Notes: generated by a model not told the origin, from the letters alone. 64,000 nt of DNA from Enterobacteria phage vB_EcoM_IME540 (MT150133.1); one strand, 5' to 3'; positions 1 to 17,970 are shown, counted from the stretch's first letter. Made by a program: numbers and translations.

Positions 1-253
1 TCAATTTAGGATTACGCAGAATAGCTCTACGAGCATTTTCAACCGACCGGTTAAAGAGTTGTTCGGCTTCAGCCATAGTAATACGACCATTGCAAACTCG
101 ACCCATAAGCTTATCAAGTTCAGCCCGAGCAACATCTTTAGAAGGATTCTTAGTAATCAATTGGCCAATACCAATAGTATAGTATCCCTCAGTATCCTTA
201 TATAAGTCTAATTTACAGCCTTCATCAAGGCGTAACATATCAAAAATATCCAT
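1..253 (-). CDS. e: T4-type endolysin (lysozyme), N-terminal 84 codons only; gene continues past window start
   Basis: Minus-strand ATG at 253-251 gives [35 protein letters not shown]..., matching the T4 lysozyme N-terminus as recalled; frame open to position 1. Confidence 0.9.
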
Positions 254-284
254 AATACCTCCTGAGTATAGGAGGTATTTATAT
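254..284 (-). promoter_or_regulatory. Late promoter TATAAATA (plus 277-284) followed by a 9-bp inverted repeat (254-262 / 270-278) that pairs the e Shine-Dalgarno AGGAGG with CCTCCT
   Basis: Minus strand reads TATAAATACCTCCTATACTCAGGAGGTATT-ATG; same arrangement as the known T4 e-gene SD-sequestering hairpin. Confidence 0.7.
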
Positions 285-2546: not shown

Positions 2547-3506
2547 TTATTTTTCGAAAGGACGAATTAAATGTTGGTTACGCTTAAACCGTTCAATGTA
2601 GTCGTTTTCACCTAAAGTCTTGTACATATTAACCACAGCTTGGTAGTTTTCCCATGCATAAGTGCGGAACCAACCTGAAGTGATTGAGGTGCACACTTTC
2701 TCAAGGGCCATATAGAAACTTAATGATGGTGAAATATTGAAGTCATTAGGAACCTGTGAACGTTCTAGTGCCAGGACACAAGTTTCTTCATACACACCAG
2801 CCAGTTTAATAGCTTCAGGCAAAGCCTCGAACTTCTCACGAGAGGTCATGACTTCAGAACCTTCCTTCATATAAAAGGTATATGCAGGGCGCCCTGCCAA
2901 TGCCACTGCTTCATGGATAGAGTCGTGGTCCAGAGTATAAATGGGATCATTAAAGAACGATGATTTGTTTACATCCAATTTAGGGTGGGAATAGCTCAAC
3001 GTTTCTTTTTGACGTTGCAACATAATTTCCTGGAGTTCTTCGTTAAGGGTGATACCTTTATTACGAAGGTATTTGATGTGGGACATGGTTTTCAAGAAGA
3101 ACGGATTATTCTTCAAGAAACGATGGGAGGTTTTGATAGCCAGACAGATATCAGGGGTTGCCCAATAGAAACCTGTAAGACGGTCCTTTTTAATATGATT
3201 TTCGGCATATTTCAGGAGACGATAACTTGAGGTGAAATCTTCGTCTTGAAGCTCACCGGTAATTTCTCGTACGTTAGTCAGGGCACGAACGATATAAGCT
3301 TCAAAATAGGTTTCTTTACCATTGTACATGCATTTAAAAGCCTGGACATCAGGGTTATCCACAGGAACATGGGCACCAAACATCCGAGCTTTAAAGTGAT
3401 TCCATGAGCCTTGGTCGGCAATGAAATCCCAATCAGAATTTTCGATATGCTTACTTTCAATCAGACCAGCGTGGTGCAGTGCACGAGAACCAATAACTAA
3501 CATCAT
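2547..3506 (-). CDS. hypothetical protein, 319 aa; possible Pol-beta-type nucleotidyltransferase-like motif
   Basis: Start at ATG 3506-3504 with RBS GAGGAAA; N-terminal IGSRALHHAGLIESKHIENSDWDFIAD loosely resembles the hG[GS]...DxD signature. Confidence 0.6.
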   Translation of the reverse strand: MMLVIGSRALHHAGLIESKHIENSDWDFIADQGSWNHFKARMFGAHVPVDNPDVQAFKCMYNGKETYFEAYIVRALTNVREITGELQDEDFTSSYRLLKYAENHIKKDRLTGFYWATPDICLAIKTSHRFLKNNPFFLKTMSHIKYLRNKGITLNEELQEIMLQRQKETLSYSHPKLDVNKSSFFNDPIYTLDHDSIHEAVALAGRPAYTFYMKEGSEVMTSREKFEALPEAIKLAGVYEETCVLALERSQVPNDFNISPSLSFYMALEKVCTSITSGWFRTYAWENYQAVVNMYKTLGENDYIERFKRNQHLIRPFEK

Positions 3507-3525
3507 AATATTTTCCTCAGTAAAC

Positions 3526-3765
3526 TTAAATTTCAGCGACGTAATCGTTATGCAATTCCCACATATCATCAGAATTATTCTTAATGATAGGAATTATCTC
3601 ATTAGAGATTTCTTCAGCATAAGGGTCATTGATACAGTGGGCATCTTCAAAACGAACACCGTAATCAGACTTCTTATAAGAGAAGCCATAAATCTTTTTA
3701 AACTTGGCGCGAGTAATGCGTACCGGTTCATTAGACTTATCGGACATCGGAGCGTAATACCACAT
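3526..3765 (-). CDS. hypothetical protein, 79 aa
   Basis: ATG 3765 preceded by RBS GAGGAG in conserved leader ACACAAACATGAGGAGAACAT. Confidence 0.55.
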   Translation of the reverse strand: MWYYAPMSDKSNEPVRITRAKFKKIYGFSYKKSDYGVRFEDAHCINDPYAEEISNEIIPIIKNNSDDMWELHNDYVAEI

Positions 3766-3792
3766 ATGTTCTCCTCATGTTTGTGTAGGGTA

Positions 3793-3821
3793 ATAGTAAC
3801 ATGATTTTCTAGAGTTGTACA
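3793..3821 (-). promoter_or_regulatory. early promoter (-35 TGTACA, -10 TACTAT) with conserved leader
   Basis: Minus strand TGTACAACTCTAGAAAATCATGTTACTATTACCCTACACAAACATGAGGAGAACAT-ATG; leader near-identical to the one at 62501-62557. Confidence 0.45.
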
Positions 3822-4138
3822 TCACTTCTGCAATATTCTAAAAATAATTTATCATTGTCTACTGTATCCCAACGACGCCAAGACGGGTTCCAGACCAAAG
3901 CGTTGTCACCACAATCATTGAGCTTAAAATGGTCGTAGTACATAGCTATGTGTCTAGTCTCGTCACCAGAGAACCCCAGTATAGGCTCACCGTGGGTGTG
4001 ATACATATGATGGTGCATTGAGAGGTCGCATTTGTAAAACATCTCACGTTTACCACGAACGAACAAGAAGGCCTGTCCATTCATATAGAATTCTTTATTT
4101 GTTTTCAAAAGATATTTGAATACTGAATCTTTATGCAT
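3809..4138 (-). CDS. hypothetical protein, 109 aa, His-rich (MHHHMYHTHGE)
   Basis: Start at internal ATG 4138-4136 with strong RBS AGGAGGA. Confidence 0.5.
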   Translation of the reverse strand: MHKDSVFKYLLKTNKEFYMNGQAFLFVRGKREMFYKCDLSMHHHMYHTHGEPILGFSGDETRHIAMYYDHFKLNDCGDNALVWNPSWRRWDTVDNDKLFLEYCRSDVQL

Positions 4139-4168
4139 AAGTCCTCCTACCACATCCATGTGGTTAAA

Positions 4169-4396
4169 TTATTTTCCTAACGAAATACGAGTAGGTTTTT
4201 TACCGAAATAGTCTTCATAAGAACCATCTAAACGACCTGCTTTAGACCGACAATATGAATCGTACTTTTTGTAATAAGTCATCTCAGTATTATAACGCGG
4301 GTGTCTATCAGCCATAATAATACTTAACGGCCAACCTTTGGCATAATCGCGAAGACCATTTATTTTACGAATGTATCTTTTCTTTAATTTTAGCAT
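4169..4396 (-). CDS. possible small basic protein, 75 aa
   Basis: ORF only; no convincing RBS at either candidate ATG. Confidence 0.3.
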   Translation of the reverse strand: MLKLKKRYIRKINGLRDYAKGWPLSIIMADRHPRYNTEMTYYKKYDSYCRSKAGRLDGSYEDYFGKKPTRISLGK

Positions 4397-4614
4397 GAGC
4401 TCGGATACCAGATTTTACCATCGGCCTGAGCAACGAAGGTGCGTCCAGCTTCTTCACCATAACAAGAGCTATTCAGCCAATCTTCGAGACGAACTTCACC
4501 GTCATAATCGTCGAGCTCAACACCAAAACTTTGAGCAGAAGCCATATCTTTTACTTTCTTATACAGTGCAGCCAGTTCAAGTGCGGCTTTTTCTAATTCA
4601 TTAATATCAGTCAT
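4390..4614 (-). CDS. small acidic protein, 74 aa, member 1 of a four-gene paralog array (C-terminus WYPSSC)
   Basis: Start at internal ATG 4614-4612 with RBS AAGGTGA; shares N-terminal MTDINELEK and C-terminal W-x-SS-x-C pattern with neighbours. Confidence 0.55.
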   Translation of the reverse strand: MTDINELEKAALELAALYKKVKDMASAQSFGVELDDYDGEVRLEDWLNSSCYGEEAGRTFVAQADGKIWYPSSC

Positions 4615-4624
4615 TTTTATCACC

Positions 4625-4837
4625 TTAGCAAGACATAGAGGATGTAAACCAGAAACCTTCACCATCTGGGATACCGTAATCATCACGGGCCCATTCATAA
4701 TCATCATATTCCGGATTCTTTGGAGAAATGTATTGTCCACGACCAGAAACATGGAACTCTTCACCCGTTTCGTCAGCCACGGCCTGGCCTTTACGTACTA
4801 ATTCGCGGATTTGTTTTTCAATTTCATCAATAGTCAT
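4625..4837 (-). CDS. small acidic protein, 70 aa, paralog 2 (C-terminus WFTSSMSC)
   Basis: RBS AAGGAAA upstream of ATG 4837; N-terminal MTIDEIEK. Confidence 0.55.
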   Translation of the reverse strand: MTIDEIEKQIRELVRKGQAVADETGEEFHVSGRGQYISPKNPEYDDYEWARDDYGIPDGEGFWFTSSMSC

Positions 4838-4846
4838 TTTATTTCC

Positions 4847-5128
4847 TTAACATTCAGAAGAAGAGGACACCCAACCGCCATTTTCTAGGCTGGTGGTGTA
4901 ATCATGCTGGTTTACAATAGCATACTGGGCTTCACCGTATTCTTCCCAGTGGGCAAGGTCGGCTTTCAAGGCGCCAGGAGAATAATAGTCACCGCCCATA
5001 CCGCGAGCAGGGTATATATTAAAATGAGTCTCATATTTGTTAGCAATTTCCTCGGCACGACGAATAGCTTTATGGATATCATTTACTGCGTCAGCCAGCT
5101 CTTTATTTTTACGGTAATCATTCATCAT
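4847..5128 (-). CDS. small acidic protein, 93 aa, paralog 3 (C-terminus WVSSSSEC)
   Basis: RBS AAGGAAA upstream of ATG 5128. Confidence 0.55.
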   Translation of the reverse strand: MMNDYRKNKELADAVNDIHKAIRRAEEIANKYETHFNIYPARGMGGDYYSPGALKADLAHWEEYGEAQYAIVNQHDYTTSLENGGWVSSSSEC

Positions 5129-5137
5129 AGCGTTTCC

Positions 5138-5428
5138 TTAGCACATTGCCGAAGAGGAGACCCAAGCACCAACTGTAACGACACCGTTTTCAACTTCACC
5201 GCCATTGTTTTCAATTTCATCTTTAAACCATTGGGAGCATTCATAACCGACAGGATAATATGTACGGCCTGAACCATAACCACCGGTACTGAATTCAATA
5301 CCATATTCATCTGCGATTTCTTCACATTTGGATTCGATGGTGCCTACTTTACCCAGCAGGTCATAGATAGCCTTTTCTGCGGACAGCGCGCTGTTGTATT
5401 CAGGGATTTCAATTTCAATTTTATTCAT
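5138..5428 (-). CDS. small acidic protein, 96 aa, paralog 4 (C-terminus WVSSSAMC)
   Basis: RBS AAGGAA upstream; start overlaps stop of upstream gene. Confidence 0.55.
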   Translation of the reverse strand: MNKIEIEIPEYNSALSAEKAIYDLLGKVGTIESKCEEIADEYGIEFSTGGYGSGRTYYPVGYECSQWFKDEIENNGGEVENGVVTVGAWVSSSAMC

Positions 5429-5778
5429 GATTTACATTCCTTAATAAAGGTTTCAAGGTCATTACGTTTAGTTTGTTTTACATACTCATTATAATTAACC
5501 ATAGCTAAAGCATATCTCTTTTTACGCGGCTTGTTTATTTTATTAGTTTGGGCAATATCAAAGACCCATGGGATAAAAAATCCTATTAAAGCCGGAACCC
5601 AAATCCATGCAAGGCTCATATCTTCAAACGGATGGCGAGGCATACCATTAATAATCCCACCGACAAGAAATCCAATTATCCCTGCAGTCATACTAGTAGC
5701 AATGCCGAGGAATAAGGAAATAGCTATATCATAATCTGCTAATGCGTAACCAGGGTCGGTTTTACTAGGCTTATGCAT
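5425..5778 (-). CDS. hypothetical membrane protein, 117 aa, with C-terminal ...NDLETFIKECKS tail
   Basis: Start at internal ATG 5778-5776; two hydrophobic helices (IAISLFLGIATSMTAGIIGFLVGGII; AWIWVPALIGFFIPWVF). Confidence 0.55.
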   Translation of the reverse strand: MHKPSKTDPGYALADYDIAISLFLGIATSMTAGIIGFLVGGIINGMPRHPFEDMSLAWIWVPALIGFFIPWVFDIAQTNKINKPRKKRYALAMVNYNEYVKQTKRNDLETFIKECKS

Positions 5779-6307
5779 TTTGAACCTCTTTAGCGTATTC
5801 GCGACATTCAGTAATAAAACGATTAAGTTTACGTTGTTGTTTACGAATCTCTGATGTATACTCATTGGCTAAAATAATAAGCTCATCTTTATCGTAATTT
5901 TTAATATCCGAATAACTCGGGCGGCGGTCGACCATACCAAAGTGGTCACCATTTTCTAACATCAAATAGCATACTAAATGGTAATCATCGTCGGCATCAA
6001 CAAGCTGTTTATAATCGCTTGGTTCATTTAAAGAGTATACTGAATAGCGTAGCCCAGCGAATTCCACTCGTTGAATAGCCAGATTTACGTCAATAATTTC
6101 TAAAGCATCTGCAAAAGAAAGGTCCTCAGCTAAAGCAAAGATAAAGGGTAATTTGGTAGTATGCCCACGGCTAGATGTTCTGCTTAAGAAATCGTTTGAA
6201 TAACCTAGGTCTTGGCGAATTCTATAAAGAACTGCATTAGTTTCATGTGAAAGACCACTATGTTTAAACCAATCAATATTTGATATCAGGTCGTCGTATA
6301 AACTCAT
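5771..6307 (-). CDS. hypothetical protein, 178 aa, with C-terminal IRKQQRKLNRFITECREY module
   Basis: ORF with RBS GGAGGAGAGGAG upstream of ATG 6307. Confidence 0.6.
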   Translation of the reverse strand: MSLYDDLISNIDWFKHSGLSHETNAVLYRIRQDLGYSNDFLSRTSSRGHTTKLPFIFALAEDLSFADALEIIDVNLAIQRVEFAGLRYSVYSLNEPSDYKQLVDADDDYHLVCYLMLENGDHFGMVDRRPSYSDIKNYDKDELIILANEYTSEIRKQQRKLNRFITECREYAKEVQNA

Positions 6308-6330
6308 AATATTCTCCTCTCCTCCAAATA

Positions 6331-6348
6331 GGGAGACCGAAGTCTCCC
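6331..6348. terminator. stem-loop GGGAGAC-CGAA-GTCTCCC
   Basis: Perfect 7-bp stem with tetraloop between two minus-strand genes; same stem sequence recurs at 46366-46383. Confidence 0.45.
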
Positions 6349-6355
6349 GGTAACA

Positions 6356-6949
6356 TTACTTAAGTGAATTAATGTAGTCTTCGATATCAGCAGAAGTCGT
6401 ATCCATTCCAACTTGCGGGCCTTTAAACGTTTCTACGCGCATCAGGGTGTCTTCGATATCAATCTTGGTCAGTGCAGCAATTTCAACAACATCGTCGGCA
6501 GTAGCAATACCAAGGGCAGCCATATTACGAGTTTCACGGATGTACTCGAGCTTAACAGCCAGTTCCTGACGAGAGTCATCAAGTTCCTTAACCTTCAGTT
6601 TAATTTCATTACGCATTTCGATATAATCATCGGCTTTCTTACGAAGCTGAGTAGCTGTACGACGATAAAGGAGACCGAGTTTAGCATGTACCTGGACATC
6701 AGAGCCTTCGGCAATCAGTTTACGAATTTCACGTTCTTTAGAAGCAGCGAGCTGGTCTTTTTCATTAGCCAAAGCACGAATACGTTTTTCTTCATTCACA
6801 GACTTAACATGAGCAGTCTGGAGTTCAGTGATTTTATCAATCAGAGTAGAAGCAGCTTTGGTGTATTGGTCTTCGATTGACAGGTTCTGAGCCATTGCGG
6901 TGCCCAGTTTAGAACGAATGAATTCAACGATTTTCTTTAAAGTGTTCAT
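6356..6949 (-). CDS. PspA/IM30 (phage-shock protein A / Vipp1)-like coiled-coil protein, 197 aa
   Basis: Start at ATG 6949-6947 with RBS GAAGGAAA; heptad-rich sequence with segments resembling PspA ([13 protein letters not shown] vs RALAEKKQL; [18 protein letters not shown] vs ELENKLSETRARQQAL), from memory. Confidence 0.5.
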
Positions 6950-7025
6950 AGTATTTCCTTCAGTTGGTTGATATTTTGTAATCCATGAGGACATTATACC
7001 CTGTCCTCTGAGGTTTGTAAACATT

Positions 7026-7424
7026 TTATTTCATTTTTGCGAGGCAGATTTCATTGGCTTCCCATTGAGCTTGCTTAATAATAGCTTTGGATACAGGAGC
7101 CCTTTGCCCATAAGTTTTTGACGTTGAGAGAACAATACATTTGTTTGCTTCATTATGCCAGCCCCATGATTTTTCGCCATGAGTACCTTTAACTACAGCT
7201 GACACCTCAACAGAGCAACCGCCATCAGAAATCTTGGTTTCGACAACCCATTCATTTCTCTCAGCAGCTTCAATTTCTAATCTAGTTTTTTCTTCATACA
7301 TCGCGGCCCAATCAGTTTTTGCCAAGTTGAAAGTAAGAGCTTTCTCTAATTCTTTGGCATATTTTTGTTGTTCAGGTGTTAATGAATTATACAACTCTTG
7401 CATTTCTTTATCTTCGATATTCAT
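7026..7424 (-). CDS. hypothetical protein, 132 aa
   Basis: ATG 7424 with RBS GAGGAG in leader TTTGAGGAGAACATA; early promoter upstream. Confidence 0.55.
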
Positions 7425-7449
7425 TATGTTCTCCTCAAATTATGGGCTC

Positions 7450-7479
7450 ATAATATCTTAATCATGAGCCCATGTAAAC
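7450..7479 (-). promoter_or_regulatory. early promoter (-35 GTTTAC, 18-bp spacer, -10 TATTAT) inside inverted repeat TGGGCTCA/TGAGCCCA
   Basis: Minus strand GTTTACATGGGCTCATGATTAAGATATTATGAGCCCATAATTTGAGGAGAACATA-ATG. Confidence 0.5.
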
Positions 7480-7482
7480 GTT

Positions 7483-7746
7483 TTATTTCATATTATTGAA
7501 ATAATTTTCTGCATCAAAATCATTACCATGGTAAACTTTGGTAGACGATTTGGCGTAACCTTCAGCTGAGAACATATTAATCACAACTTTAATTGTATAC
7601 CACTGTCCATCTTCATTACCCATTACTGCATAGGTTTCATACACCGGGTGTTCAGGACCGATAACCTTAATATCGTTAACTGTGGCACCAAATTCTTCCG
7701 GAACGCATTTCATAAAGAAATTAAACACTTCACCATAATTATCCAT
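7483..7746 (-). CDS. hypothetical protein, 87 aa
   Basis: Track ORF begins at a GTG; real start taken as ATG 7746-7744 with RBS AAGGAG. Confidence 0.5.
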   Translation of the reverse strand: MDNYGEVFNFFMKCVPEEFGATVNDIKVIGPEHPVYETYAVMGNEDGQWYTIKVVINMFSAEGYAKSSTKVYHGNDFDAENYFNNMK

Positions 7747-7781
7747 TTTACTCTCCTTCACTCTGTTGTTTTGATAGGTCT

Positions 7782-7810
7782 ATAGTATCATGTTTAAAGG
7801 AGGTGTAAAC
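7782..7810 (-). promoter_or_regulatory. early promoter cassette (-35 GTTTAC, 17 bp, -10 TACTAT)
   Basis: Minus strand GTTTACACCTCCTTTAAACATGATACTATAGACCTATCAAAACAACAGAGTGAAGGAGAGTAAA-ATG. Confidence 0.55.
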
Positions 7811-7833
7811 ATCTTTTTTAAACTTTTAGAAAC

Positions 7834-7861
7834 AAAAAAGGCCCAACCTTTCGGAAGGGCC
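7834..7861 (-). terminator. rho-independent terminator, copy 1 of identical 30-bp element ACAAAAAAGGCCCAACCTTTCGGAAGGGCC
   Basis: Minus strand reads GGCCCTTCCGAAAGGTTGGGCC + TTTTTT directly after the stop of gene 7867-8421. Confidence 0.65.
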
Positions 7862-7866
7862 GTGAA

Positions 7867-8421
7867 TCAGTTCTTGTAGAACCGGAACGGGTTTATGTGG
7901 AAGGCTAACATAGCCTTAGGGATTTTACGAGACAAAAGACTCTTAAGTTTCCAACCACAGTACACGCGAAGGTAAAAGGTAATTCCACCTACTTTAAGAT
8001 ACGGAACCGAAGCAAAGACTCCCCATGCTTCATCATTCCACATCCATAACCAACCATGGTGAGCTTTATCAGGAGAACCAGATTCTACATCAGGATTACC
8101 GCGATAATGGAATTCTGAACTACAATCACGTCCTAGTTTATGATAAGCAAAGTTATAAGCTTTATTTCGCCATAGCCAAGCTACTCTCTGGAGGTAAACA
8201 CCACCAGGCATTTTCCTGATTTTAGCCCAACGTTTAATATGACCTTTGTCGCCATCAATTGGATTATCGTATGTCATCATCCAATCAAAGCCATAAGGCA
8301 ATTTACCGGTCTTTTTATTGTAGAAAGGAACTACAAAAGGCGCAAGGATAACGGCTAGAACCATAGAGATAAAATCCAGCGGGACCAACAGAATCCAACT
8401 CAAATATTTTAAAAGTTTCAT
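7867..8421 (-). CDS. hypothetical membrane-anchored protein, 184 aa, Trp/His-rich C-terminal domain
   Basis: N-terminal hydrophobic segment LSWILLVPLDFISMVLAVILAPFVVPF; RBS AGGAAATAAT; late-type TATAAATA box 27 nt upstream. Confidence 0.6.
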   Translation of the reverse strand: MKLLKYLSWILLVPLDFISMVLAVILAPFVVPFYNKKTGKLPYGFDWMMTYDNPIDGDKGHIKRWAKIRKMPGGVYLQRVAWLWRNKAYNFAYHKLGRDCSSEFHYRGNPDVESGSPDKAHHGWLWMWNDEAWGVFASVPYLKVGGITFYLRVYCGWKLKSLLSRKIPKAMLAFHINPFRFYKN

Positions 8422-8447
8422 ATTATTTCCTAAGTTAGTTTACTACA

Positions 8448-8455
8448 TATTTATA
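8448..8455 (-). promoter_or_regulatory. late promoter TATAAATA for gene 7867-8421
   Basis: Minus strand TTTTTTGTATAAATATGTAGTAAACTAACTTAGGAAATAAT-ATG. Confidence 0.5.
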
Positions 8456-8456
8456 C

Positions 8457-8484
8457 AAAAAAGGCCCAACCTTTCGGAAGGGCC
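8457..8484 (-). terminator. rho-independent terminator, copy 2 of the identical 30-bp element
   Basis: Same hairpin + T-run downstream of the tRNA/ncRNA region. Confidence 0.65.
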
Positions 8485-8490
8485 TTTAAC

Positions 8491-8715
8491 CTAGGGTAAC
8501 CTTGTCGGGGTTCCACCTGCTAGGCAAGTGTTCGGTGCGCCGTTTCAGCTGTGATAGTAAAGAGCCAGAACACAGTAAAACTGTGGGAGGAACTATACTC
8601 CAGGGAACATCAGTCCGACGACTTACCGGTAGCGACCCGGTTTCTTGTTTGGTGCGCCGGTGAATGCTGGTAATCAGTCTTCATACGACGGCTTGACTAT
8701 ATAATAGTCTTCATT
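8491..8715 (-). ncRNA. candidate small stable RNA(s) downstream of tRNA-Arg, analogous in position to T4 RNA species C/D
   Basis: 225 nt with no credible ORF, between tRNA-Arg and a terminator; internal repeats GGTGCGCCG and AGTCTTCAT; not folded. Confidence 0.3.
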
Positions 8716-8790
8716 TGGTATCCCGCCCTGGGATCGAACCAGGACCGCAAACTTAGAAGGATCGTATGCTATCCATTACACCAGCGGGAC
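8716..8790 (-). tRNA. tRNA-Arg (anticodon UCU), CCA encoded
   Basis: Minus strand GTCCCGC...TTCTAAG...CCTGGTTCGATCCCAGGGCGGGATACCA; 7-bp acceptor stem, T-arm CCTGG-TTCGATC-CCAGG, anticodon loop CTTCTAA. Confidence 0.85.
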
Positions 8791-8795
8791 GTAAT

Positions 8796-9461
8796 TCAAA
8801 ATTTTATTTTACGGCCTTTATTCCAACCTTCAGGAATAATATCCGTTTTGTTAATACGTTTAGAAACTTTTTCTTCTAAAGAATGAATCCACATTTTTCC
8901 ATATCCGGAATTATTTTCACCTTGTTGGTGTTTATTTCTGGCGTGAGATTCTTTCATTTTATTTTTGGTTTCATCTGAATGGGTCTTACCCAAGAAAGAT
9001 TTAGTATTTGAAAATTTCTCTCTATACTTAGGATTATCCCAAAGTTGTTTAAACCTTTCCGAACCCATTTTACGATATTTTTCTTTAAGGTCTGGGTCGT
9101 TCTCAAATCTGGTTTTAAAAGCGGCAACTCCTTTTAAGGAAGCTTCTTTCTTTTTATCTAAATATTCTTCAGTGTTTAAATGGTCCCAACCACCTTCACC
9201 ACCTAATTTCAAATTATAAACATCAGGGCGCTTTAAAAACTCTTCAGTCACAATATTCTTTTCTGACTCAAACATAGAGGTTTTATCGTCAAAGAACTCT
9301 AATATTTCTTTAGAGAAATTTTCTATACCGTATTTGACCTGGGCCCTTTTTAAGAGTTTACCAGAACCAAAATATGCATCATTCAAATTTTCGGTTGAAT
9401 GGGCGCCTATATAGATTTTATTATTAATTTTGTTTGTTATTTTATAAGTGTAATGGAACAT
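8796..9461 (-). CDS. segB: GIY-YIG homing endonuclease, segB-like, inside the tRNA cluster
   Basis: 221 aa; N-terminal YKITNKINNKIYIGAHST...GSGK motif; basic NUMOD-like C-terminus; RBS AGGAGA; same position as T4 segB. Confidence 0.8.
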   Translation of the reverse strand: MFHYTYKITNKINNKIYIGAHSTENLNDAYFGSGKLLKRAQVKYGIENFSKEILEFFDDKTSMFESEKNIVTEEFLKRPDVYNLKLGGEGGWDHLNTEEYLDKKKEASLKGVAAFKTRFENDPDLKEKYRKMGSERFKQLWDNPKYREKFSNTKSFLGKTHSDETKNKMKESHARNKHQQGENNSGYGKMWIHSLEEKVSKRINKTDIIPEGWNKGRKIKF

Positions 9462-9502
9462 AAATATCTCCTATTTCTAAGAGTATTTATGTTCTCAAAA
9501 TA

Positions 9503-9573
9503 TGGCCCTGGGTGGAATCGAACCACCATCCAGCGATTATGAGTCGCTCGCTTGACCGTCCAGCTACAGGGCC
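9503..9573 (-). tRNA. tRNA with CAU anticodon (Met, or Ile if lysidine-modified), CCA not encoded
   Basis: Minus strand GGCCCTG...AGCGA-CTCATAA-TCGCT...GGTGG-TTCGATT-CCACC-CAGGGCC-A. Confidence 0.8.
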
Positions 9574-9578
9574 TTAAA

Positions 9579-9851
9579 TCAAACTACAAATCCAGCAGGA
9601 GCATTATCATCTTTAGCCATGTGCTGAATTGTATGATAAGTCATTTCTTCAGGAGCAACCAGATAAGCCGCAGCGTTAACTAGTGGAATTATTTTTGGTT
9701 TAGCGAATGTGCTATCGGCAATTGCCATAAAGGGCTCGCCATCAGTCTCAACTTCGCCAAATTGACATTCATATGAAATAGAACAACGTTTGGTAGTTGT
9801 TGTCTTGGTTTCTGGGTCGTAAAAAGCTAATTTTAATACTAACATAAACAC
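9579..9851 (-). CDS. hypothetical protein, 90 aa
   Basis: ORF only, immediately upstream of the tRNA. Confidence 0.4.
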   Translation of the reverse strand: MFMLVLKLAFYDPETKTTTTKRCSISYECQFGEVETDGEPFMAIADSTFAKPKIIPLVNAAAYLVAPEEMTYHTIQHMAKDDNAPAGFVV

Positions 9852-9903
9852 CTCAAATAAAATTAAGTAAAGTAAGTTTGATTAATAGACCTTGTCTATT
9901 ATG

Positions 9904-9929
9904 AAAGGTTCTTTGAGGGAAGAACCTTT
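9904..9929. other. 10-bp-stem hairpin AAAGGTTCTT-TGAGGG-AAGAACCTTT in an intergenic region
   Basis: Perfect inverted repeat in 170-nt noncoding stretch 9852-10019. Confidence 0.4.
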
Positions 9930-10019
9930 GGTAATAGAGGGTATTAATGATAGAGTAATAATAACACATTACTCTTAAAGCATATTACTATTTTTAGGAA
10001 TAGTCTGGTCAAATTTGAT

Positions 10020-10310
10020 TCATTGTGGCCACATATTAATGTAATCAAGTTTAATAGAAGCAATCTTCAAAGGATTTTTAAAGATGTCGTATTCGATCAA
10101 TCCGTTTTCAGTTGCGGTGTAGAAAGTAAAGTTAACAGAATTATAACGGCGACCATTAACTTTTAGTTTAACGTCGCTTGAACTACGACCAATATTAACC
10201 TGTTGGACATCAAGCACAGCACCTTTGCCAAAGTTGCGAATCAGTAGCTCTGCTGCAACCTGGTCTGAATTATAGCCATTCTCTGGATTAGTAACCTTAA
10301 CGTATAGCAT
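10020..10310 (-). CDS. hypothetical protein, 96 aa
   Basis: ORF with RBS GAGGG; stop/start juxtaposed to the upstream gene. Confidence 0.5.
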   Translation of the reverse strand: MLYVKVTNPENGYNSDQVAAELLIRNFGKGAVLDVQQVNIGRSSSDVKLKVNGRRYNSVNFTFYTATENGLIEYDIFKNPLKIASIKLDYINMWPQ

Positions 10311-10718
10311 TTAACCCTCGTCTACAATAGTATGGGTATTAGCATTAACAATCTGCCACCAGTCACAGTCAAAACGATTAGAACCGTAACGAGGCTTTTT
10401 CTCATTTTCGTTAATAATATCACGTAGTTCGTCTTCAGAAAATGCTTTAGCGATTAAATCGGTATAGCCGCCACGTGGATAATAGTTATCACCTGCGAAC
10501 AGAAGGAAATTTACTTTACCAGAAGGAACATATGCTTCCTTAGGATACTTGTTTCCTGCTTGGTCTACCACTTCAATATAACGGTAAGGAATATCGGTAC
10601 TTTCAACCCATTGCCAAGCTGCAGCAGGGGATTCAAAAGCATCTACACCTAAACGGTTATCTTCATCTTTAGACGGATTATTTTCATAATCCGCATATAC
10701 ATAATATTCAATGTTCAT
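10311..10718 (-). CDS. hypothetical protein, 135 aa
   Basis: ORF with TAATG overlap to the upstream gene. Confidence 0.55.
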   Translation of the reverse strand: MNIEYYVYADYENNPSKDEDNRLGVDAFESPAAAWQWVESTDIPYRYIEVVDQAGNKYPKEAYVPSGKVNFLLFAGDNYYPRGGYTDLIAKAFSEDELRDIINENEKKPRYGSNRFDCDWWQIVNANTHTIVDEG

Positions 10719-10903
10719 TATTCACCTTTAGAGATTTTATCCATAACGAAAGAAATTGAACCAATTAAGAATGCCACTACTAAAGAGATTATATTCTCGG
10801 AAGTTGAAAGCATATCGAGCATGAATCCTGCAAACATACTAAAGCCAAAAGCAGTAACAGCGGCCAGTGCAGTAACATTTCTAATTAATTCACAAGGTTT
10901 CAT
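10718..10903 (-). CDS. small hydrophobic membrane protein, 61 aa
   Basis: Track ORF begins at TTG; real start ATG 10903-10901 with RBS GGAG in leader GGAGAATAAA-ATG; two hydrophobic stretches. Confidence 0.5.
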   Translation of the reverse strand: MKPCELIRNVTALAAVTAFGFSMFAGFMLDMLSTSENIISLVVAFLIGSISFVMDKISKGE

Positions 10904-10939
10904 TTTATTCTCCAATCACTCATTTGTTTTGATAGGGCT

Positions 10940-10969
10940 ATAGTACCATCACTAAAGCCCGTTGTAAAC
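10940..10969 (-). promoter_or_regulatory. early promoter cassette (-35 GTTTAC, -10 TACTAT) with inverted repeat GGGCTATAG/CTAAAGCCC
   Basis: Minus strand GTTTACAACGGGCTTTAGTGATGGTACTATAGCCCTATCAAAACAAATGAGTGATTGGAGAATAAA-ATG. Confidence 0.55.
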
Positions 10970-10971
10970 AA

Positions 10972-11244
10972 TTATTTTAAATAAATTGCATATTTTTTAT
11001 AACCAGCCGTCTCGTGGCGCAGCCCTTTTTCATTAGCAAAACGTTCAATATTGTTAATTTGATTCTGGTCGAGTTCTGAAGTATCAAATACAAAAAAGTT
11101 TCGCTTATTGCCTAAAGTTACGTGATTAGTCAAATCGATGTTATAGAGATGATTTATATTATCAATCATGGTCTTAACAGATTTGTTAATTTTTACTTCT
11201 TCATTAAGAATAGATTCAGCGATAAATTCTTGGTATGATTTCAT
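10972..11244 (-). CDS. internal-protein-like, 90 aa, with N-terminal capsid-targeting sequence MKSYQEFIAES
   Basis: N-terminus matches the T4 internal protein (IPI/IPII/IPIII) capsid-targeting sequence MKTYQEFIAEA; body differs from the neighbour. Confidence 0.65.
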   Translation of the reverse strand: MKSYQEFIAESILNEEVKINKSVKTMIDNINHLYNIDLTNHVTLGNKRNFFVFDTSELDQNQINNIERFANEKGLRHETAGYKKYAIYLK

Positions 11245-11245
11245 T

Positions 11246-11470
11246 TTATTCAGCGCCAGCAGCTTTCAAAAGTTTTTTAAGATTGGCTATGCCGCCAGCA
11301 GAAAACGTGACCTTGCCACCTTTTTCATTGATAGAGCCAGTCAATTTAGCAAGCTTATCACTAGGGACTTTTTTAAAATCAGCCAGTGTGCCATCAAAGG
11401 TTTTTGTAACAATTGGCAGTTCATCTTCATGTCTTTTAGCTTCGGTGATAAATTCTTGATAAGTTTTCAT
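11246..11470 (-). CDS. internal-protein-like, 74 aa, with N-terminal capsid-targeting sequence MKTYQEFITEA
   Basis: Capsid-targeting-type N-terminus; early promoter cassette upstream. Confidence 0.65.
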   Translation of the reverse strand: MKTYQEFITEAKRHEDELPIVTKTFDGTLADFKKVPSDKLAKLTGSINEKGGKVTFSAGGIANLKKLLKAAGAE

Positions 11471-11507
11471 TTTGATTTCCGTTTGGTTAGTTTGTTTTGA
11501 TAGGTCT

Positions 11508-11536
11508 ATAGTATCATGCCTATAGACCTTGTAAAC
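11508..11536 (-). promoter_or_regulatory. early promoter cassette (-35 GTTTAC, 17 bp, -10 TACTAT) with 10-bp inverted repeat AGGTCTATAG/CTATAGACCT
   Basis: Minus strand GTTTACAAGGTCTATAGGCATGATACTATAGACCTATCAAAACAAACTAACCAAACGGAAATCAAA-ATG. Confidence 0.55.
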
Positions 11537-11547
11537 AACTTTTTAAA

Positions 11548-12240
<693 letters not shown>

Positions 12241-12248
<8 letters not shown>

Positions 12249-13002
12249 TTTTATTTCCTAATAATTTATCAATAGTGGTGTATAGTTCAGAAAGAGTGCC
12301 GTTATTTTCAACAACAACGTCACCAGGTAAAATTGGTAGACCCGCTTCAGTGATGTGCGAGTCTTGTACTTGACCGGTTTCAGCGCGAACTACATGAATA
12401 ATCGTAGCACCCATCGCTCTGAGCGAATCAATTTCGTGTGTTTGACGAACATCAGGTACGACATAGTATTTCGCATCAGAGTATATTTTATCAAAATAGT
12501 CTAAAGCGAACAACTTAACCCAATACATCTTATCAAATTGGTTAACAATAATATCAGTCCCAAGGGTCTGCATGAGACGACGTACTGACCAATTGTTATT
12601 TTTATTTATTACTTCAAACAGTTGGTCTTTTGTTTCTTCAGACAGATACTGGACTGCGGTAAGACCATAATGATATGCGGTACGAACATCCATTCCTGGA
12701 ATAGGAAGGATATTATTCAGTTTGACAATAGCATTTTCAAAGATATCAATCACATCATATGGTTTTAAAGGAATGATTTCTTCACGGTCGTAACCGATAC
12801 CTTCAAAACAGTTAAAATCTAGTTTAGGCATGTAACTACGGTCGAATACAGGGTCATCAGAGATGTATTCATAGGCTTCAGCCAGATACTTTTTAATAGG
12901 ACCTGCGAGCTGAAATTTTACCGAATCCATATTTTCGATTACATAGTTAGCAACGGTATCCTTACCGCTACGTTTGATTCCTACAATTGATATTAGTTTC
13001 AT
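12241..13002 (-). CDS. 1: deoxynucleoside monophosphate kinase gp1
   Basis: 253 aa with P-loop GIKRSGKDT and RRLMQTLGTDIIVNQFDKMYWVKLFALDY, matches T4 gp1. Confidence 0.9.
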
Positions 13003-13592
13003 TATTTTCTCATAGATGGATGCATAGACATACGAGCCACTCGTTGTTCGGCATACGAATCAATTTGTGGACGACCTGTAACTATTGTACCATCTATTTC
13101 TACAGCAAACGATTTGAAGTTGAATGTTGCTGTAGCGATTATCGCTGGGTCAGAATCCTCTTTATAAGAGTACTGGATTTCCGAGAGGTCAGATGGCCAA
13201 CCACCGTAGTAATGAATGCTCATTACGATTTTTTGTTTGTTGTTATCAAGGATGTGGAGGGTGATAGCTTCCGGTTGTCCTTTAGGGTGCCAGGCTTCTG
13301 AATCATGGGTTACATAGTTGTTTAATGACAACATCCACTTATAAACACCAAGCCATGATTTCAATTCACGGTCTACAAGAAAGTTCACAATCAATGGATC
13401 GAATTCTACCGTAGAACCTGGCAGCTTAGCACGATGTATGCCCTGGGTCGATCCCGGGACGTCTGAGACCGGAATATGGATACCCGGTAGTGTTACATCT
13501 TGTACGTTCAATTTGAATGCCTGCGTCATTCCTGCGTCACTAACCTCTAAGATAAAGTTAGTAGTGTTAGTTTGGTTAAATAAACCGTTCAT
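13002..13592 (-). CDS. 3: gp3-like tail completion / sheath stabiliser protein
   Basis: Positional equivalent of T4 gene 3; start taken at ATG 13592 (RBS AGGAA) rather than the upstream extension; exact start uncertain. Confidence 0.7.
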   Translation of the reverse strand: MNGLFNQTNTTNFILEVSDAGMTQAFKLNVQDVTLPGIHIPVSDVPGSTQGIHRAKLPGSTVEFDPLIVNFLVDRELKSWLGVYKWMLSLNNYVTHDSEAWHPKGQPEAITLHILDNNKQKIVMSIHYYGGWPSDLSEIQYSYKEDSDPAIIATATFNFKSFAVEIDGTIVTGRPQIDSYAEQRVARMSMHPSMRK

Positions 13593-13674
13593 AGGGTTCC
13601 TATATTGCTTAAGTCCCAGACAGTGTATAATGGTCCTAGGTCTGTTCCATTCAATAACTGGCTGGGATAATAGA

Positions 13675-14511
13675 TTAAGAATTCTTCCATACTTTCTGAG
13701 CTGAGTAACGCTTACCTTTCGATACAAATTGCTGAAGCGGTAATCCTATTACATTAGCCCAATCAGACGGTTTTATCTCTACTAAAGGTCCCTTGATATT
13801 TCCAGGGATATAAGCTTTAATCATCACGTCGGCGCCAGCGAATCCTTTTACCTTACTCCAATCGATTTTTAATTTAGTCGAGTTCGTAATGGTAGGCGTA
13901 CTCGCGTATTGCTTCAGCAATTCTTCCAGAAATTGTTGACGTGCTTTAGGTGGAATATAGTGTAAGTTCAGTCCGTACATTAAATTATGCTTACCTAACC
14001 CAAGATAAATTATTAAAGGATATTTGTCCCAGTATGGTAGGGTATCCTTATGTTTGGCATCATAGATATAAGCATAAAGCTTACCAGGAGACGGTTTAGA
14101 TACCTGGTGTCCACGAATTCCTTTCTTTAATGTTTCTGTAAACCATTTAGCTGATTTATTGTTTATGGCAGCGCCTTCGTTAGCAATCTTATCGCGAATA
14201 CTCTTTCTAAAACTATTCACCAAAATTAATTGACGTTCTGCTTTGGTTAATTTATTGCCAGGTTTCTTCTGAAGTTTTTCAACCTGTACAGCAGTTTTAA
14301 TTCGACTCGAGTATCGAGACATCGCAGATGTAAAGCTAGAATACTTGATGCCTTTATCTTCAGCGAATTTCTTAGCCGAAACACCTTTAGCCTTAGCGTT
14401 GGCATATTCAACGCCTAAAGTTATCCATTGTTGTTCTGAACGAGTAGGCTTGGAACCTTTTGTAGTTTCAGTAGCCTCGTTGATGTAAGAAAATATACTC
14501 ATCCTTTCCAT
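13675..14511 (-). CDS. 2: gp2 DNA end-protector protein
   Basis: 278 aa, basic; order 4-2-3-1 and size match T4 gp2. Confidence 0.8.
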
Positions 14512-14948
14512 CCTAATTTTTTCAGTGAGTTTTCGGTAATCAATCTGAAATTAATTCCCATTTTATCTGCTGTAGCTTTAGCAGCTTTCCATTTATCTTT
14601 ATTTACACTCCATGTATAATGTTCGTTGATATATCTCTTTTTAGCAGCTGTAGTCATTTTAGCAGGCGCCGCTGGAGGATGGGTCTCTTTAAAAGGTTTG
14701 ACTTCGAAAAAGAATTGTTGACCATTGTCGAACTTCACCCAGAAGTCCATAAAATACCGACGTTTCTTTCCATCAGCGTTACTAAAATATGGAATCACAA
14801 CCTCTTCCGAGTTCCACTGGACGACATTAGGATGGTTATCAAGCCAACGCATAAGCCATGCTTCCCAAGAGGAACGATATTGGATTTTCTTCCAATCACC
14901 TTTATATTTTTGTAAGTTTGTAGGTTTAAATTTCCCTGAGTAGGCCAT
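14499..14948 (-). CDS. 4: gp4 head completion protein
   Basis: 149 aa [29 protein letters not shown]..., matches T4 gp4. Confidence 0.85.
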
Positions 14949-14958
14949 AGTGCCTCCT

Positions 14959-14966
14959 TATAAATA
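14959..14966 (+). promoter_or_regulatory. late promoter TATAAATA for gene 53
   Basis: Exact T4 late consensus 28 nt upstream of ATG 14994. Confidence 0.6.
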
Positions 14967-14973
14967 TTAATAT

Positions 14974-14981
14974 TATTTATA
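14974..14981 (-). promoter_or_regulatory. late promoter TATAAATA for gene 4 (divergent)
   Basis: Exact consensus on minus strand upstream of gene 4 start at 14948. Confidence 0.6.
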
Positions 14982-14993
14982 CTCGGAGGCACT

Positions 14994-15596
14994 ATGCTCT
15001 TCTCATTTTTCGATCCCATCGATTACGAATCAAAAACAGTCAAGCCAGATTCCGGCTCATTAACTGATGCCGATGTACTGAGCGTACCGATGACTGATAT
15101 ATTTAGAAACTATAAAGAATATTTTGATAAAGTGGCTAAAAATTATACACTTAAAACATATTATATCAGTGGGGCCCCTCGTCCAGAAGAATTAGCCCAT
15201 CAACTTTATGGTAACGTGCAATTATATTGGGTCCTTTTAATGTGTAACAATATCTATGACCCTTATTACGGCTGGATTACAGGCCAAGAATCTGCGTATC
15301 AAGCAGCTATTCAACGTTATGCTACTGCAGGCGGAAACCAAGTCCTTTATCATGTCAATGAAAAGGGTGAGAAATTCTGGAATCTAGTAAATACTCCGGA
15401 AAATCCTTATACTTGGTACGATAAAGGTGATACAGAAAAACGTTATCCTCAATATGAAGGTCCTTTGGCTGCAGTAGATATTTACGAGGACGCCATTCGT
15501 AAAAATGAATATAAGCGCGAAATAAAGATTATAGACCCTAATGACATCGAGTCCTTTGTTTCCGCTTTAATTAGAGAAATGGAGAAGTCACTCTAA
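14994..15596 (+). CDS. 53: baseplate wedge protein gp53
   Basis: 200 aa MLFSFFDPIDYESKTV...PMTDIFRNYKEYF...YWVLLMCNNIYDPYYGWIT, matches T4 gp53. Confidence 0.85.
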   Translation: MLFSFFDPIDYESKTVKPDSGSLTDADVLSVPMTDIFRNYKEYFDKVAKNYTLKTYYISGAPRPEELAHQLYGNVQLYWVLLMCNNIYDPYYGWITGQESAYQAAIQRYATAGGNQVLYHVNEKGEKFWNLVNTPENPYTWYDKGDTEKRYPQYEGPLAAVDIYEDAIRKNEYKREIKIIDPNDIESFVSALIREMEKSL

Positions 15597-16231
15597 TGTT
15601 TTATTACGTCTATAAAATAACCAATATAATTAATGGTAAATTTTATATCGGTGCTCATAGTACATCAAATATGGATGACGGTTATATGGGCTCAGGTAAA
15701 TTAATTAAACGCGCTATACTAAAATATGGCATTGAAAATTTCAAAAAAGAAATATTAAAATTTGTTGATTCTAAAAAAGAAATGTATGAACTCGAAAAAG
15801 AACTTGTTGTCCTTACTGAAAATTCATACAATTTAAAACCGGGCGGTTCCGGTGGGTTTTTAAAACATGATAACTTTAAAGGCAGGTCCCATAGTCAGAA
15901 AACCAAAGATATTATGAGCGCTAATAACTCAGGCAAAAACAATCCTATGTATGGTAGAAAACGAGACCAACACGGAGAAAAAGCACCTAATTATGGTAAA
16001 AAGTGCTCTGAGGCTAAAAGAAAATTACTTTCTGAAAAATCTAAATCCTATTTTGAAAACCTTCAAACCATAACTAAAAATCTCGGCTTTGGTCCTACAT
16101 CGGTTGAAACTAGATATGTATCAAGACATATTAAAAAGCTAGGATTAGATTTTTATAAATTTAATCGTGATATAACAGAAACTAATGTTTCCATAGTTAG
16201 AAATATTTTAGAACAAAGGAAAGCGCTATGA
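15596..16231 (+). CDS. GIY-YIG homing endonuclease (seg-like) inserted between genes 53 and 5
   Basis: 211 aa; N-terminus MFYYVYKITNIINGKFYIGAHST...GSGK is a close paralog of the segB-like protein; ATGA overlap with gene 5. Confidence 0.8.
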   Translation: MFYYVYKITNIINGKFYIGAHSTSNMDDGYMGSGKLIKRAILKYGIENFKKEILKFVDSKKEMYELEKELVVLTENSYNLKPGGSGGFLKHDNFKGRSHSQKTKDIMSANNSGKNNPMYGRKRDQHGEKAPNYGKKCSEAKRKLLSEKSKSYFENLQTITKNLGFGPTSVETRYVSRHIKKLGLDFYKFNRDITETNVSIVRNILEQRKAL

Positions 16232-17970
16232 TTAACATGTCTGATAATGTAAGTTGGTTCGTCGGTGTGGTTGAAGACCGTATGGACCCACTCCAACAAG
16301 GACGCGTTCGAGTTCGTGTCTGGGGCCTGCATCCTTACGAAAAGGTCCAAGGTCCTGTAAAAGGCCTTCGTACAGAGGATTTACCGTGGATGTCCGTATT
16401 AATGCCTACATCTTCTGCCTCTGTTTCTGGTATCCAAACCGCTATGACTGGTATGGTTCCAGGTACTCAGGTTTATGGGCACTTTCTTGATAAGTGGAAA
16501 TTAAACGGGCTTGTCCTCGGTACATATGGTTCCGCTTCAAGACAAAAGGCTAATCCTAATGAAGGTTTTAGTGACCCGACAGGTCAATACCCACTTTATT
16601 TGGGTAATGATGCTGCAGCACTAAACCGAGGTGGTGAAGTTGGATACGATGCCACTTCTAACGTAATACAAGATGCAAACACCGATGTAGGTATTAACCC
16701 AGACGGTTTGGATTTGAGCCAAGTCAAGCCTGATGATAATCCTAATTTCACAATAGAAAACATGCTTCATCGTGATGAAGGGCTTAGACTGAAGGTATAT
16801 TGGGATACCGAAGGTTATCCTACTATAGGTATAGGCCACCTTATCACACCACAACCTATTAGAGATATGAATCGAATAAACAAAATATTATCTAATCAGG
16901 TAGGACGAGAAGTTAAAGGTAACCCTGGTGCAATATCAATGGATGAGGCTTCTAAATTATTCCAAGAAGACCTTAAAAAAGTCCAAAACGATATAGGTCG
17001 GCATAGTGTTGTAGGTCCTGTTTACAATAAAGAAAACCGTTCAAGACAAATGGCTCTTGAAAACATGGCTTTCCAAATGGGATTAGGTGGATTGGCTAAA
17101 TTCCGTGGAATGCTTAGTGCAATGCTAATAGGCGATTATAAAAAGGCATTTGAGGAAGCTCGTAATTCAGTATGGTTTAACCAAACTAAAGGTCGCGCAT
17201 CAAGGGTGTCAATGATTATCCTCACAGGTAACATGGAATCATATGGTATTATGGCCCCTAAAGAAAGGTCATTTAATGGCCGTTCGTATAGAATGATTCA
17301 AACCTTTGTGGCCCCTACAAATTCAGACCCTGCCGACCCGTGGACTCCAGAAGACACAAGGATTCTTTTTAAAGAACCTGATTCTAGTTATAAAGGCGAA
17401 TATCCATATGTCCAAACCATGCAAACTGAAGGCGGGCATATCCAAGAATTCGATAATACCCCAGGGCAAGAACGATACCGTTTAATCCATCCTACCGGTA
17501 GTTATGAAGAAGTTGCTCCTGACGGACGTAAAACTTCTAAGACGGTAGCCGATGGTTATTATATGACCCAAGGCGATTCAAATACTTATGTTGGTGGTAA
17601 TAATAAGGTCAATATAGGCGGCGATGAAACCTATTATAATATGGCAAACGTTCGTCGTCAAACTGACGGGTCTGAAAGCATCCATATTCGTGGTAATGAA
17701 ACTAAAACAGTAGAAGGTGACGGAACCCTTATTGTTAAAGGAAACGTAACAATTCTTGTCGAGGGTAGTGCTGATATAACTGTTAAGGGCGATGCTAAAA
17801 CATTAGTTGAAGGCAATCATGACTATACCGTAAATGGAAACGTTAAATGGTCTGTAAATGGAAACGTTGATATGACTGTTGCAGGTAATTGGTCTGAAAC
17901 TATGTCAACTATGAGTTCTATTGCATCAGGTCAATATACTATTGATGGTTCGAGGATTGACATTGGCTAA
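16228..17970 (+). CDS. 5: baseplate central spike gp5 with lysozyme domain
   Basis: 580 aa; lysozyme segment GYPTIGIGHLI...; C-terminal VxGxxxV beta-helix repeats. Confidence 0.9.
   Translation: MINMSDNVSWFVGVVEDRMDPLQQGRVRVRVWGLHPYEKVQGPVKGLRTEDLPWMSVLMPTSSASVSGIQTAMTGMVPGTQVYGHFLDKWKLNGLVLGTYGSASRQKANPNEGFSDPTGQYPLYLGNDAAALNRGGEVGYDATSNVIQDANTDVGINPDGLDLSQVKPDDNPNFTIENMLHRDEGLRLKVYWDTEGYPTIGIGHLITPQPIRDMNRINKILSNQVGREVKGNPGAISMDEASKLFQEDLKKVQNDIGRHSVVGPVYNKENRSRQMALENMAFQMGLGGLAKFRGMLSAMLIGDYKKAFEEARNSVWFNQTKGRASRVSMIILTGNMESYGIMAPKERSFNGRSYRMIQTFVAPTNSDPADPWTPEDTRILFKEPDSSYKGEYPYVQTMQTEGGHIQEFDNTPGQERYRLIHPTGSYEEVAPDGRKTSKTVADGYYMTQGDSNTYVGGNNKVNIGGDETYYNMANVRRQTDGSESIHIRGNETKTVEGDGTLIVKGNVTILVEGSADITVKGDAKTLVEGNHDYTVNGNVKWSVNGNVDMTVAGNWSETMSTMSSIASGQYTIDGSRIDIG

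Follow-up and report, generated by a model that had tools for sequence, protein, structure and literature searches.

The stretch of DNA analysed here (64,000 nucleotides, hereafter the window) comes from Enterobacteria phage vB_EcoM_IME540 (MT150133.1), which was placed among the T4-type myoviruses in Dhakavirus. A query of ~1.1 kb around the locus described below is 99.5% identical to vB_EcoM_FB, 99.4% to LHE83 and 98.6% to QL01/WG01, with identity of ~90% to JS98/JS10/IME08/Bp7 and of 74-76% to Gaprivervirus. Two genes diverge at this locus. Gene 4 (14499..14948, minus strand, start codon at 14948..14946) encodes a head completion protein of 149 aa with a TnsA-like nuclease fold, recognized by its open reading frame, by the annotation of 99%-identical phages and by Pfam PF08722 (E = 2.9e-24); this TnsA-like endonuclease N-terminal domain fits the name 'head completion nuclease' that gp4 carries in some records. 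Gene 53 (14994..15596, plus strand) encodes a baseplate wedge subunit of 200 aa, recognized in the same way by its open reading frame, by annotation in relatives and by Pfam PF11246 (E = 8e-73).

Downstream of gene 53, and before gene 5, lies a seg-like homing endonuclease ORF (15596-16231, plus strand, with GIY-YIG and NUMOD3) whose ATG overlaps the gene 53 stop. KIT01 has a 636-nt ORF labelled 'hypothetical protein' in the homing-endonuclease position, and FB is listed with a similar ORF; genes 53 and 5 are directly adjacent in QL01, WG01 and MX01.

The 45-nt interval between genes 4 and 53, read from start codon to start codon, is CAT-AGTG-CCTCC-T-TATAAATA-TTAATAT-TATTTATA-CTC-GGAGG-CACT-ATG. 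The translation initiation region of gene 4 (left arm, CATAGTGCCTCC, 14946..14957, read on the minus strand as GGAGG-CACT-ATG) and that of gene 53 (right arm, GGAGGCACTATG, 14985..14996, GGAGG-CACT-ATG on the plus strand) are exact reverse complements: CAT AGTG CCTCC and GGAGG CACT ATG match at 12 of 12 positions, Shine-Dalgarno sequences and start codons included, across 27 intervening nucleotides. This is as the original prediction had it, as is the AT-rich spacer between the arms (TTATAAATATTAATATTATTTATACTC, G or C at 2 of 27 positions), with its two opposed TATAAATA boxes, one for gene 53 at 14959..14966 (+) and one for gene 4 at 14981..14974 (-). In a repeat search the inverted repeat lengthens to 21 nt, with 86% complementarity (14937-14957 / 14985-15005), and a second one of 11 nt, formed by the two boxes themselves, appears inside it. 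The full quasi-palindrome, comprising the 21-nt arms and the inner box-box stem, occupies 14937..15005 and is a predicted hairpin in any read-through RNA.

A conserved pair of crossed late promoters

The T4 late promoter is defined by TATAAATA, with A tolerated at -13, located about one helical turn upstream of the start and accompanied by no -35 element (PMC2988020, PMC1524935); the box spans -13..-6 relative to the late start (PMC1524935). Both boxes in the interval are exact, the AT-rich segment TTAATAT lies between them and hence downstream of each, and both stand 5' of orthologues of T4 late genes and are near-invariant in 20 lineages. T4 genes 4 and 53 are themselves late as RNA and as protein in time-course omics (PMC9697503 supplement). 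Across the 64-kb window the box occurs 20 times, against 7.6 expected. From the -13..-6 rule, late transcripts are predicted to begin at ~14972 (+), giving gene 53 a leader of 22 nt, and at ~14968 (-), giving gene 4 a leader of 20 nt, so that both starts would fall between the arms.

The crossed promoters would start a counterclockwise 4-2-3 unit and a clockwise 53-5-6... unit, and 1-3 nt separate each TATAAATA box from the opposite gene's Shine-Dalgarno sequence. Polymerase modified by gp55/gp33/gp45 would initiate ~6 nt past each box, which would place the two mRNA 5' ends ~5 bp apart on opposite strands, overlapping one another, and the late mRNAs would carry short, unstructured leaders of 20-22 nt with strong GGAGG sites. 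The locus is a conserved back-to-back late promoter pair of T4-type phages, and to that extent already known biology; its value is that of a well-conserved case in which the open complexes of two crossed late promoters must be mutually exclusive.

The T4 4/53 pair shares the genes, their orientation and the crossed geometry: 7 nt separate the TATAAATA and TATTTATA boxes, each box abuts the opposite gene's Shine-Dalgarno sequence, and the intergenic region measures 47 nt compared with 45 here. It differs in its arms, GGAGAATCCAATG and GGAGGGCCCATG, which are complementary only through the Shine-Dalgarno and AUG, and in its predicted read-through fold, at -15 to -17 kcal/mol versus -32 here. Other divergent late pairs in the window likewise have opposed TATAAATA boxes, but their read-through folds reach only -5 to -15 kcal/mol. 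One of these, a second crossed pair at 52340-47 (+) / 52354-61 (-) (region 52318-52378) with boxes 6 nt apart, separates a 223-aa minus-strand ORF from a uvsW-like gene; its arms have no identity and it folds at -15/-11 kcal/mol. A third pair, at 55973/55977 (region 55952-56008), lies between gp26-like and gp51-like genes; its boxes overlap (TATTTATAAATA), its ribosome-binding sites are not mirrored, and it folds at -6/-8 kcal/mol.

Predicted structure of read-through and late transcripts

The original prediction supposed that in any read-through transcript the arms could pair and bury the Shine-Dalgarno and AUG, while transcripts from the late promoters, beginning between the arms, would stay open, and proposed structure prediction on the two kinds of RNA as a check. 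Run in this way, the comparison gives a strong fold versus an open one, and agrees with that proposal on both points. Read-through RNA is predicted to fold at -32.8 kcal/mol on the plus strand and -32.1 kcal/mol on the minus strand, with z about -8 for each (the 51-nt core gives -25.5 / -24.6 kcal/mol), compared with -8.1 kcal/mol for late-start RNA from 14972 (+) and -7.6 kcal/mol from 14968 (-), with z about -0.8. Between 12 and 14 of the 14 ribosome-binding-site nucleotides are paired in the predicted read-through folds, and all 14 on the minus strand. The geometry expected of a temporal hairpin is present in these predictions: in the long transcript a stable helix holds the Shine-Dalgarno and AUG in its 3' arm, and a late transcript from the predicted starts lacks the 5' arm.

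Gene e (lysozyme), which runs off the start of the window, carries its own hairpin at 283..240 (-), AAUACCUCCU-AUACUC-AGGAGGUAUU-AUG, in which a TATAAATA box at 283..276 overlaps the 5' arm. This minus-strand hairpin is predicted to fold at -14.1 kcal/mol in read-through RNA and at -2.5 kcal/mol from the late start. In T4 the gene e type of hairpin cuts translation ~100-fold (PMC3014915). The core of the 4/53 hairpin is the more stable of the two in prediction (-25 vs -14 kcal/mol), and it would be effective if read-through RNA exists.

Structures that mask ribosome-binding sites have been reviewed in T4 for e, soc, 49, I-TevI, mobE and segB, a list from which genes 4 and 53 are absent (PMC3014915), and none of the papers we searched connects genes 4/53 to a hairpin. 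The likeness of the 4/53 locus to the hairpins of e, soc, 49 and I-TevI lies in a late TATAAATA placed so that the late RNA drops the 5' arm of a helix burying the Shine-Dalgarno and AUG (PMC3014915). Each of those genes, however, follows early or middle genes of its own strand, with documented read-through and a 5' arm that has no other job, whereas at 4/53 the 5' arm is the other gene's ribosome-binding site, read-through is undocumented and the pairing is not conserved. If real, the hairpin mechanism would add one further case to a class already known.

We also considered, and rejected, the plus-strand hairpin as an intrinsic terminator, with TTTTT at 15006-15010 following the extended stem: the U-run represents conserved gp53 Ser-Phe-Phe codons, and this reading is further weakened by T4, which gives a similar terminator-like match from a different small stem. 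An Rfam scan of 14700-15250 returned only sub-threshold chance matches, to mir-1684 (20.8 bits vs a gathering score of 60) and to snR36.

How unusual are the mirrored arms?

The 4/53 repeat is the sole perfect inverted repeat of at least 12 bp, with a loop of 3-60 nt, in the 64-kb window. At least one such repeat nevertheless arises in 26% of dinucleotide-shuffled windows, so that the bare repeat is unremarkable and becomes notable only for its position. GGAGG Shine-Dalgarno sequences and ATG, with their complements, account for 10 of the 12 arm positions; the arms being for the most part made of these elements, the true coincidence is one of equal spacing plus four identical spacer bases. Of 253 pairs of GGAG-type ribosome-binding sites in the window, two agree at all 9 nt preceding ATG, which makes identity of any one pair a ~1% event and not an astronomical one. 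The second 9/9 identical pair involves unrelated minus-strand gene starts at 10903 and 2468 (GAGAATAAA-ATG). We rejected, as a full explanation, that the arms are merely a common consensus of late-gene ribosome-binding sites, since sites in the window are mostly GGAGA with AT-rich spacers; GGAGGC is used by only genes 4 and 53 among the 23 GGAG-type sites.

Conservation across T4-type phages

We compared 4/53 intervals from more than 20 lineages, comprising T4 and Mosig-, Dhaka-, Gapriver-, Kanagawa-, Kagamiyama-, Jiaoda-, Karam-, Gelderland-, Winkler- and Marfavirus, and taking in Moon, Acinetobacter phage Ac42 and an RB49-like phage. The promoter geometry is kept from T4 to the Acinetobacter phages, with the shared pattern CAT-N4-9-CCTCC-T-[T/A]ATAAATA-N5-10-TATTTATA-N2-4-GGAGG-N3-5-ATG and an intergenic length of 45-51 nt in most lineages compared. 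In all 20 aligned lineages the gene 53 box is either invariant or has A at -13, and the gene 4 box TATTTATA (alignment columns 51-58) is invariant in 20/20. The GGAGG and ATG of gene 4 are conserved in relatives as well, and the spacer between them is variable.

The original prediction was staked in part on conservation of the palindrome in relatives, and on this point it fails. Perfection is limited to the QL01/WG01/MX01/FB subclade, with 13 of 51 Dhakavirus records sharing an identical 69-nt quasi-palindrome; KIT01 differs by one mismatch, and in 35 of the 51 there are mismatches together with a 1-nt indel. Six combinations of gene 4/gene 53 spacers occur in Dhakavirus (CACT/CACT, CACT/CCCT, CAACT/CCCT, CGACT/CTCT, CGACT/CACT and CGACT/CCCT), from which it follows that the two arms change independently and without compensation. 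The predicted hairpin is strong in all Dhakavirus (-24 to -28 kcal/mol), and the arms of Gaprivervirus match at 11 of 12 positions. No comparable palindrome was seen in ~100 more distant gene-4 loci, and an exact-pattern scan of IMG/VR for the Dhakavirus core recovered only six genomes, all already in the comparison.

In a chimera test over 15-20 lineages, native halves gave -13.4/-13.5 kcal/mol versus -13.7/-14.0 kcal/mol for mismatched halves (permutation p = 0.76, or 0.95 without the source phage). Because chimeras fold as stably as native halves, ~-13 kcal/mol is best seen as an automatic by-product of the opposed elements: wherever ribosome-binding sites, start codons and TATA boxes face each other in pairs, the interval will be quasi-palindromic, at about -13 kcal/mol. 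Pair counts agree, with the structure predicted for the source phage 82.1% paired in the 20-lineage alignment vs 81.4% when the 3' letters are shuffled within columns, the observed pairing being reached in 125 of 500 shuffles, and covariation of 0.095 vs 0.097; three spacer pairs are broken in 9/20, 11/20 and 6/16 lineages. The helix, in other words, is not maintained in relatives, with pairing at its shuffled expectation, chimeras equal to native intervals and haplotypes that vary independently. As to the claim that the logic of the lysozyme hairpin is here applied to two divergent genes at once, the predicted fold geometry is supported and a selected symmetric switch is not, given the chimera result and the lack of covariation in 20 lineages.

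Origin of the perfect repeat

The perfect palindrome would have come about through a 1-nt deletion in the gene 4 spacer of the QL01-like subclade, from CGACT/CAACT to CACT, by which the arms became an identical 12-bp repeat; we infer both the direction of this deletion and the neutrality of the perfect arms. A longer, 13-nt gene 4 arm (CATAGTCGCCTCC) is present in phage 005, whose gene 53 side already has CACT, and the base lost relative to CATAGTCGCCTCC / GGAGGCACTATG of this phage is exactly the unpaired one. Correction of quasi-palindromes by template switching, as in the Ripley model, was reportedly first described for T4 rII, and a correction of this kind may possibly have helped to perfect the palindrome. 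The likeness is that an imperfect palindrome (CATAGTCGCCTCC / GGAGGCACTATG) has been perfected by loss of its unpaired base; the difference is that a plain 1-nt deletion is equally possible and gives the same product, with nothing to separate the two routes here.

Pairing is raised by each of two derived changes in the subclade, one being the spacer deletion and the other a synonymous GCT-to-GCC change in codon 2 of gene 4. That one template-switch tract produced both was considered and rejected: a single tract would alter 14944-14945, which are unchanged, and the two changes must therefore be separate events.

Possible sources of read-through RNA

Any regulatory role for the hairpin depends on RNA that enters the interval from outside. 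T4 early and middle transcripts are all counterclockwise (PMC2988020), a polarity that corresponds to the minus strand here, where genes 1 and e lie, and the orientation matches AF158101. On the plus strand, neither TATAAATA nor a common variant of it occurs in 1-14958, the 15 kb upstream of gene 53, which is packed with minus-strand genes, and sigma-70-like matches on the plus strand upstream of gene 53 are at chance level only. With early and middle RNA of opposite polarity and no plus-strand late-promoter consensus upstream, the gene 53 hairpin is without a plausible read-through substrate; a same-strand early or middle promoter upstream, as temporal hairpins have, was not found on this side. 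The gene 53 half of the proposed lysozyme-type logic is consequently left without a substrate, all early and middle T4 RNA having the minus-strand polarity (PMC2988020).

On the minus strand, a sigma-70-like promoter (TTGACG-17-TATAAT, 11/12 matches) lies inside gene 5 at 17633..17661, in a position homologous to that of the T4 oriE early promoter. Early minus-strand RNA directed toward gene 4 has no other plausible source than this candidate, which lies 2.7 kb upstream of that gene. The T4 early promoter inside gene 5 points toward genes 53 and 4 and is linked with oriE and with the antisense repEA and repEB; the candidate promoter of the source phage occupies the same codon position and matches better than that of T4. 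Antisense ORFs resembling repEA and repEB are found at 17390-17512 and 16253-16360 (tblastn E = 1.6e-10 and 2e-7), part of this conservation being forced by the coding of gene 5 on the other strand.

Inside gene 53, in antisense and just upstream of the palindrome on the minus strand, there is a terminator-like extended stem followed by U5 (~15066..15031, -15 kcal/mol). This stem occurs in Dhakavirus only, and in MX01 and KIT01 synonymous changes make it weaker.

Interpretation of the palindrome

We favour, at a rough probability of 0.72, the reading that the locus is a known promoter pair bearing a lineage-specific, near-neutral perfected quasi-palindrome. The perfect palindrome is probably an accident of one lineage, near-neutral in effect, and not a selected regulatory device. 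Divergent strong Shine-Dalgarno sites together with opposed TATA promoters are palindromic by construction, and so even a perfect 12-bp repeat with a predicted fold of -32 kcal/mol is not, on its own, evidence of regulation. Several observations do stand against a neutral accident: the restriction of GGAGGC to genes 4/53 among the 23 sites and the ~1% expectation for identity of a given pair; the fact that both derived changes in the subclade increase pairing; the similarity of the arms in Dhaka- and Gaprivervirus, which exceeds the family average; and a hairpin that outdoes that of gene e in predicted stability (-25 vs -14 kcal/mol) and so would be effective given read-through.

A rival reading is a one-sided switch at gene 4, which we consider unlikely. 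Early RNA from the oriE-like promoter would run antisense through the homing-endonuclease ORF and gene 53 and enter gene 4, where the hairpin would mask the ribosome-binding site and block early synthesis of gp4; late RNA from the box at 14981..14974, lacking the 5' arm, would then be translated, and the plus-strand hairpin would be an unavoidable mirror image. The promoter at the T4 oriE codon position, with its repEA/repEB-like antisense ORFs, is consistent with such a route, as are the polarity of all T4 early and middle transcription and the predicted minus-strand fold (-32.1 kcal/mol, 14/14 ribosome-binding-site nucleotides paired). Timing of this kind is already established in e, soc, 49, I-TevI and mobE (PMC3014915), and gp4 has a nuclease fold, like the hairpin-timed nuclease gp49. 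The arms, too, are more alike in Dhaka- and Gaprivervirus, with two derived changes that raise pairing. The comparative evidence nonetheless argues against it: the arms show neither conservation nor covariation, the T4 hairpin, at -13 to -15 kcal/mol, does not exceed the chimera baseline in stability, and hairpin stability has no strand bias across lineages. T4 gene 4 RNA is moreover classed as late (PMC9697503 supplement). The proposed RNA would also have to survive ~1.3 kb without translation, from the repEB-like ORF to gene 4, a condition for Rho-dependent polarity (untranslated RNA in principle invites Rho-dependent termination; PMC2988021), and to pass the intervening terminator-like stem and U5 at ~15066..15031. 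That Dhakavirus, and most strongly the QL01-like subclade, recruited the mirrored sites as a one-sided gene 4 switch that holds until the late promoter fires seems to us quite improbable. Were it so, the gene 53 ribosome-binding site would act, in antisense, as the anti-ribosome-binding-site of its neighbour gene 4.

A role at the level of DNA is very doubtful. The palindrome might bind a dimeric protein or form a cruciform, and in this way coordinate the two promoters or insulate them from each other; another possibility is that identical leaders were selected because they equalise translation of gp4 and gp53. Perfect two-fold symmetry of the DNA would suit a dimer, coordination is plausible where two open complexes must overlap, and both leaders do share identical strings from Shine-Dalgarno to AUG. 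Yet the symmetry is absent in most relatives with the same geometry, the second crossed pair in the window has no symmetric arms, and a review of late transcription gives only the TATA box with gp55/gp33/gp45, and weak, non-essential binding of DsbA. Scarcely credible is the symmetric switch of the original prediction, in which the same hairpin would silence both genes in read-through RNA and release them in late transcripts: in its favour are predicted folds of equal strength on both strands and predicted late starts that fall between the arms. Against it, early and middle transcription of the plus strand is not known, the 15 kb upstream hold no late-promoter consensus on that strand, any late read-through along it would come at a time when gp53 is needed in any case, and the comparative evidence against the gene 4 version applies equally.

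Under the favoured reading of a near-neutral palindrome on a known promoter pair, the lesson is one of methodological caution, in that a striking fold at a divergent-promoter site needs comparative or transcript support before it is given a regulatory meaning. If the hairpin were a real switch, a pair of structural genes would join the few T4 genes whose timing depends on a masked ribosome-binding site, by means of a compact trick in which each of two divergent genes supplies the inhibitory arm of the other.

A different arrangement was seen in distant, mostly uncultured T4-like contigs from IMG/VR (loci L034-L106). Their intergenic regions are only 10-55 nt, with little predicted structure, and gene 4 often starts ...TATTTATG, which means that a late-promoter-like box of the divergent neighbour, CATAAATA, overlaps the start codon.
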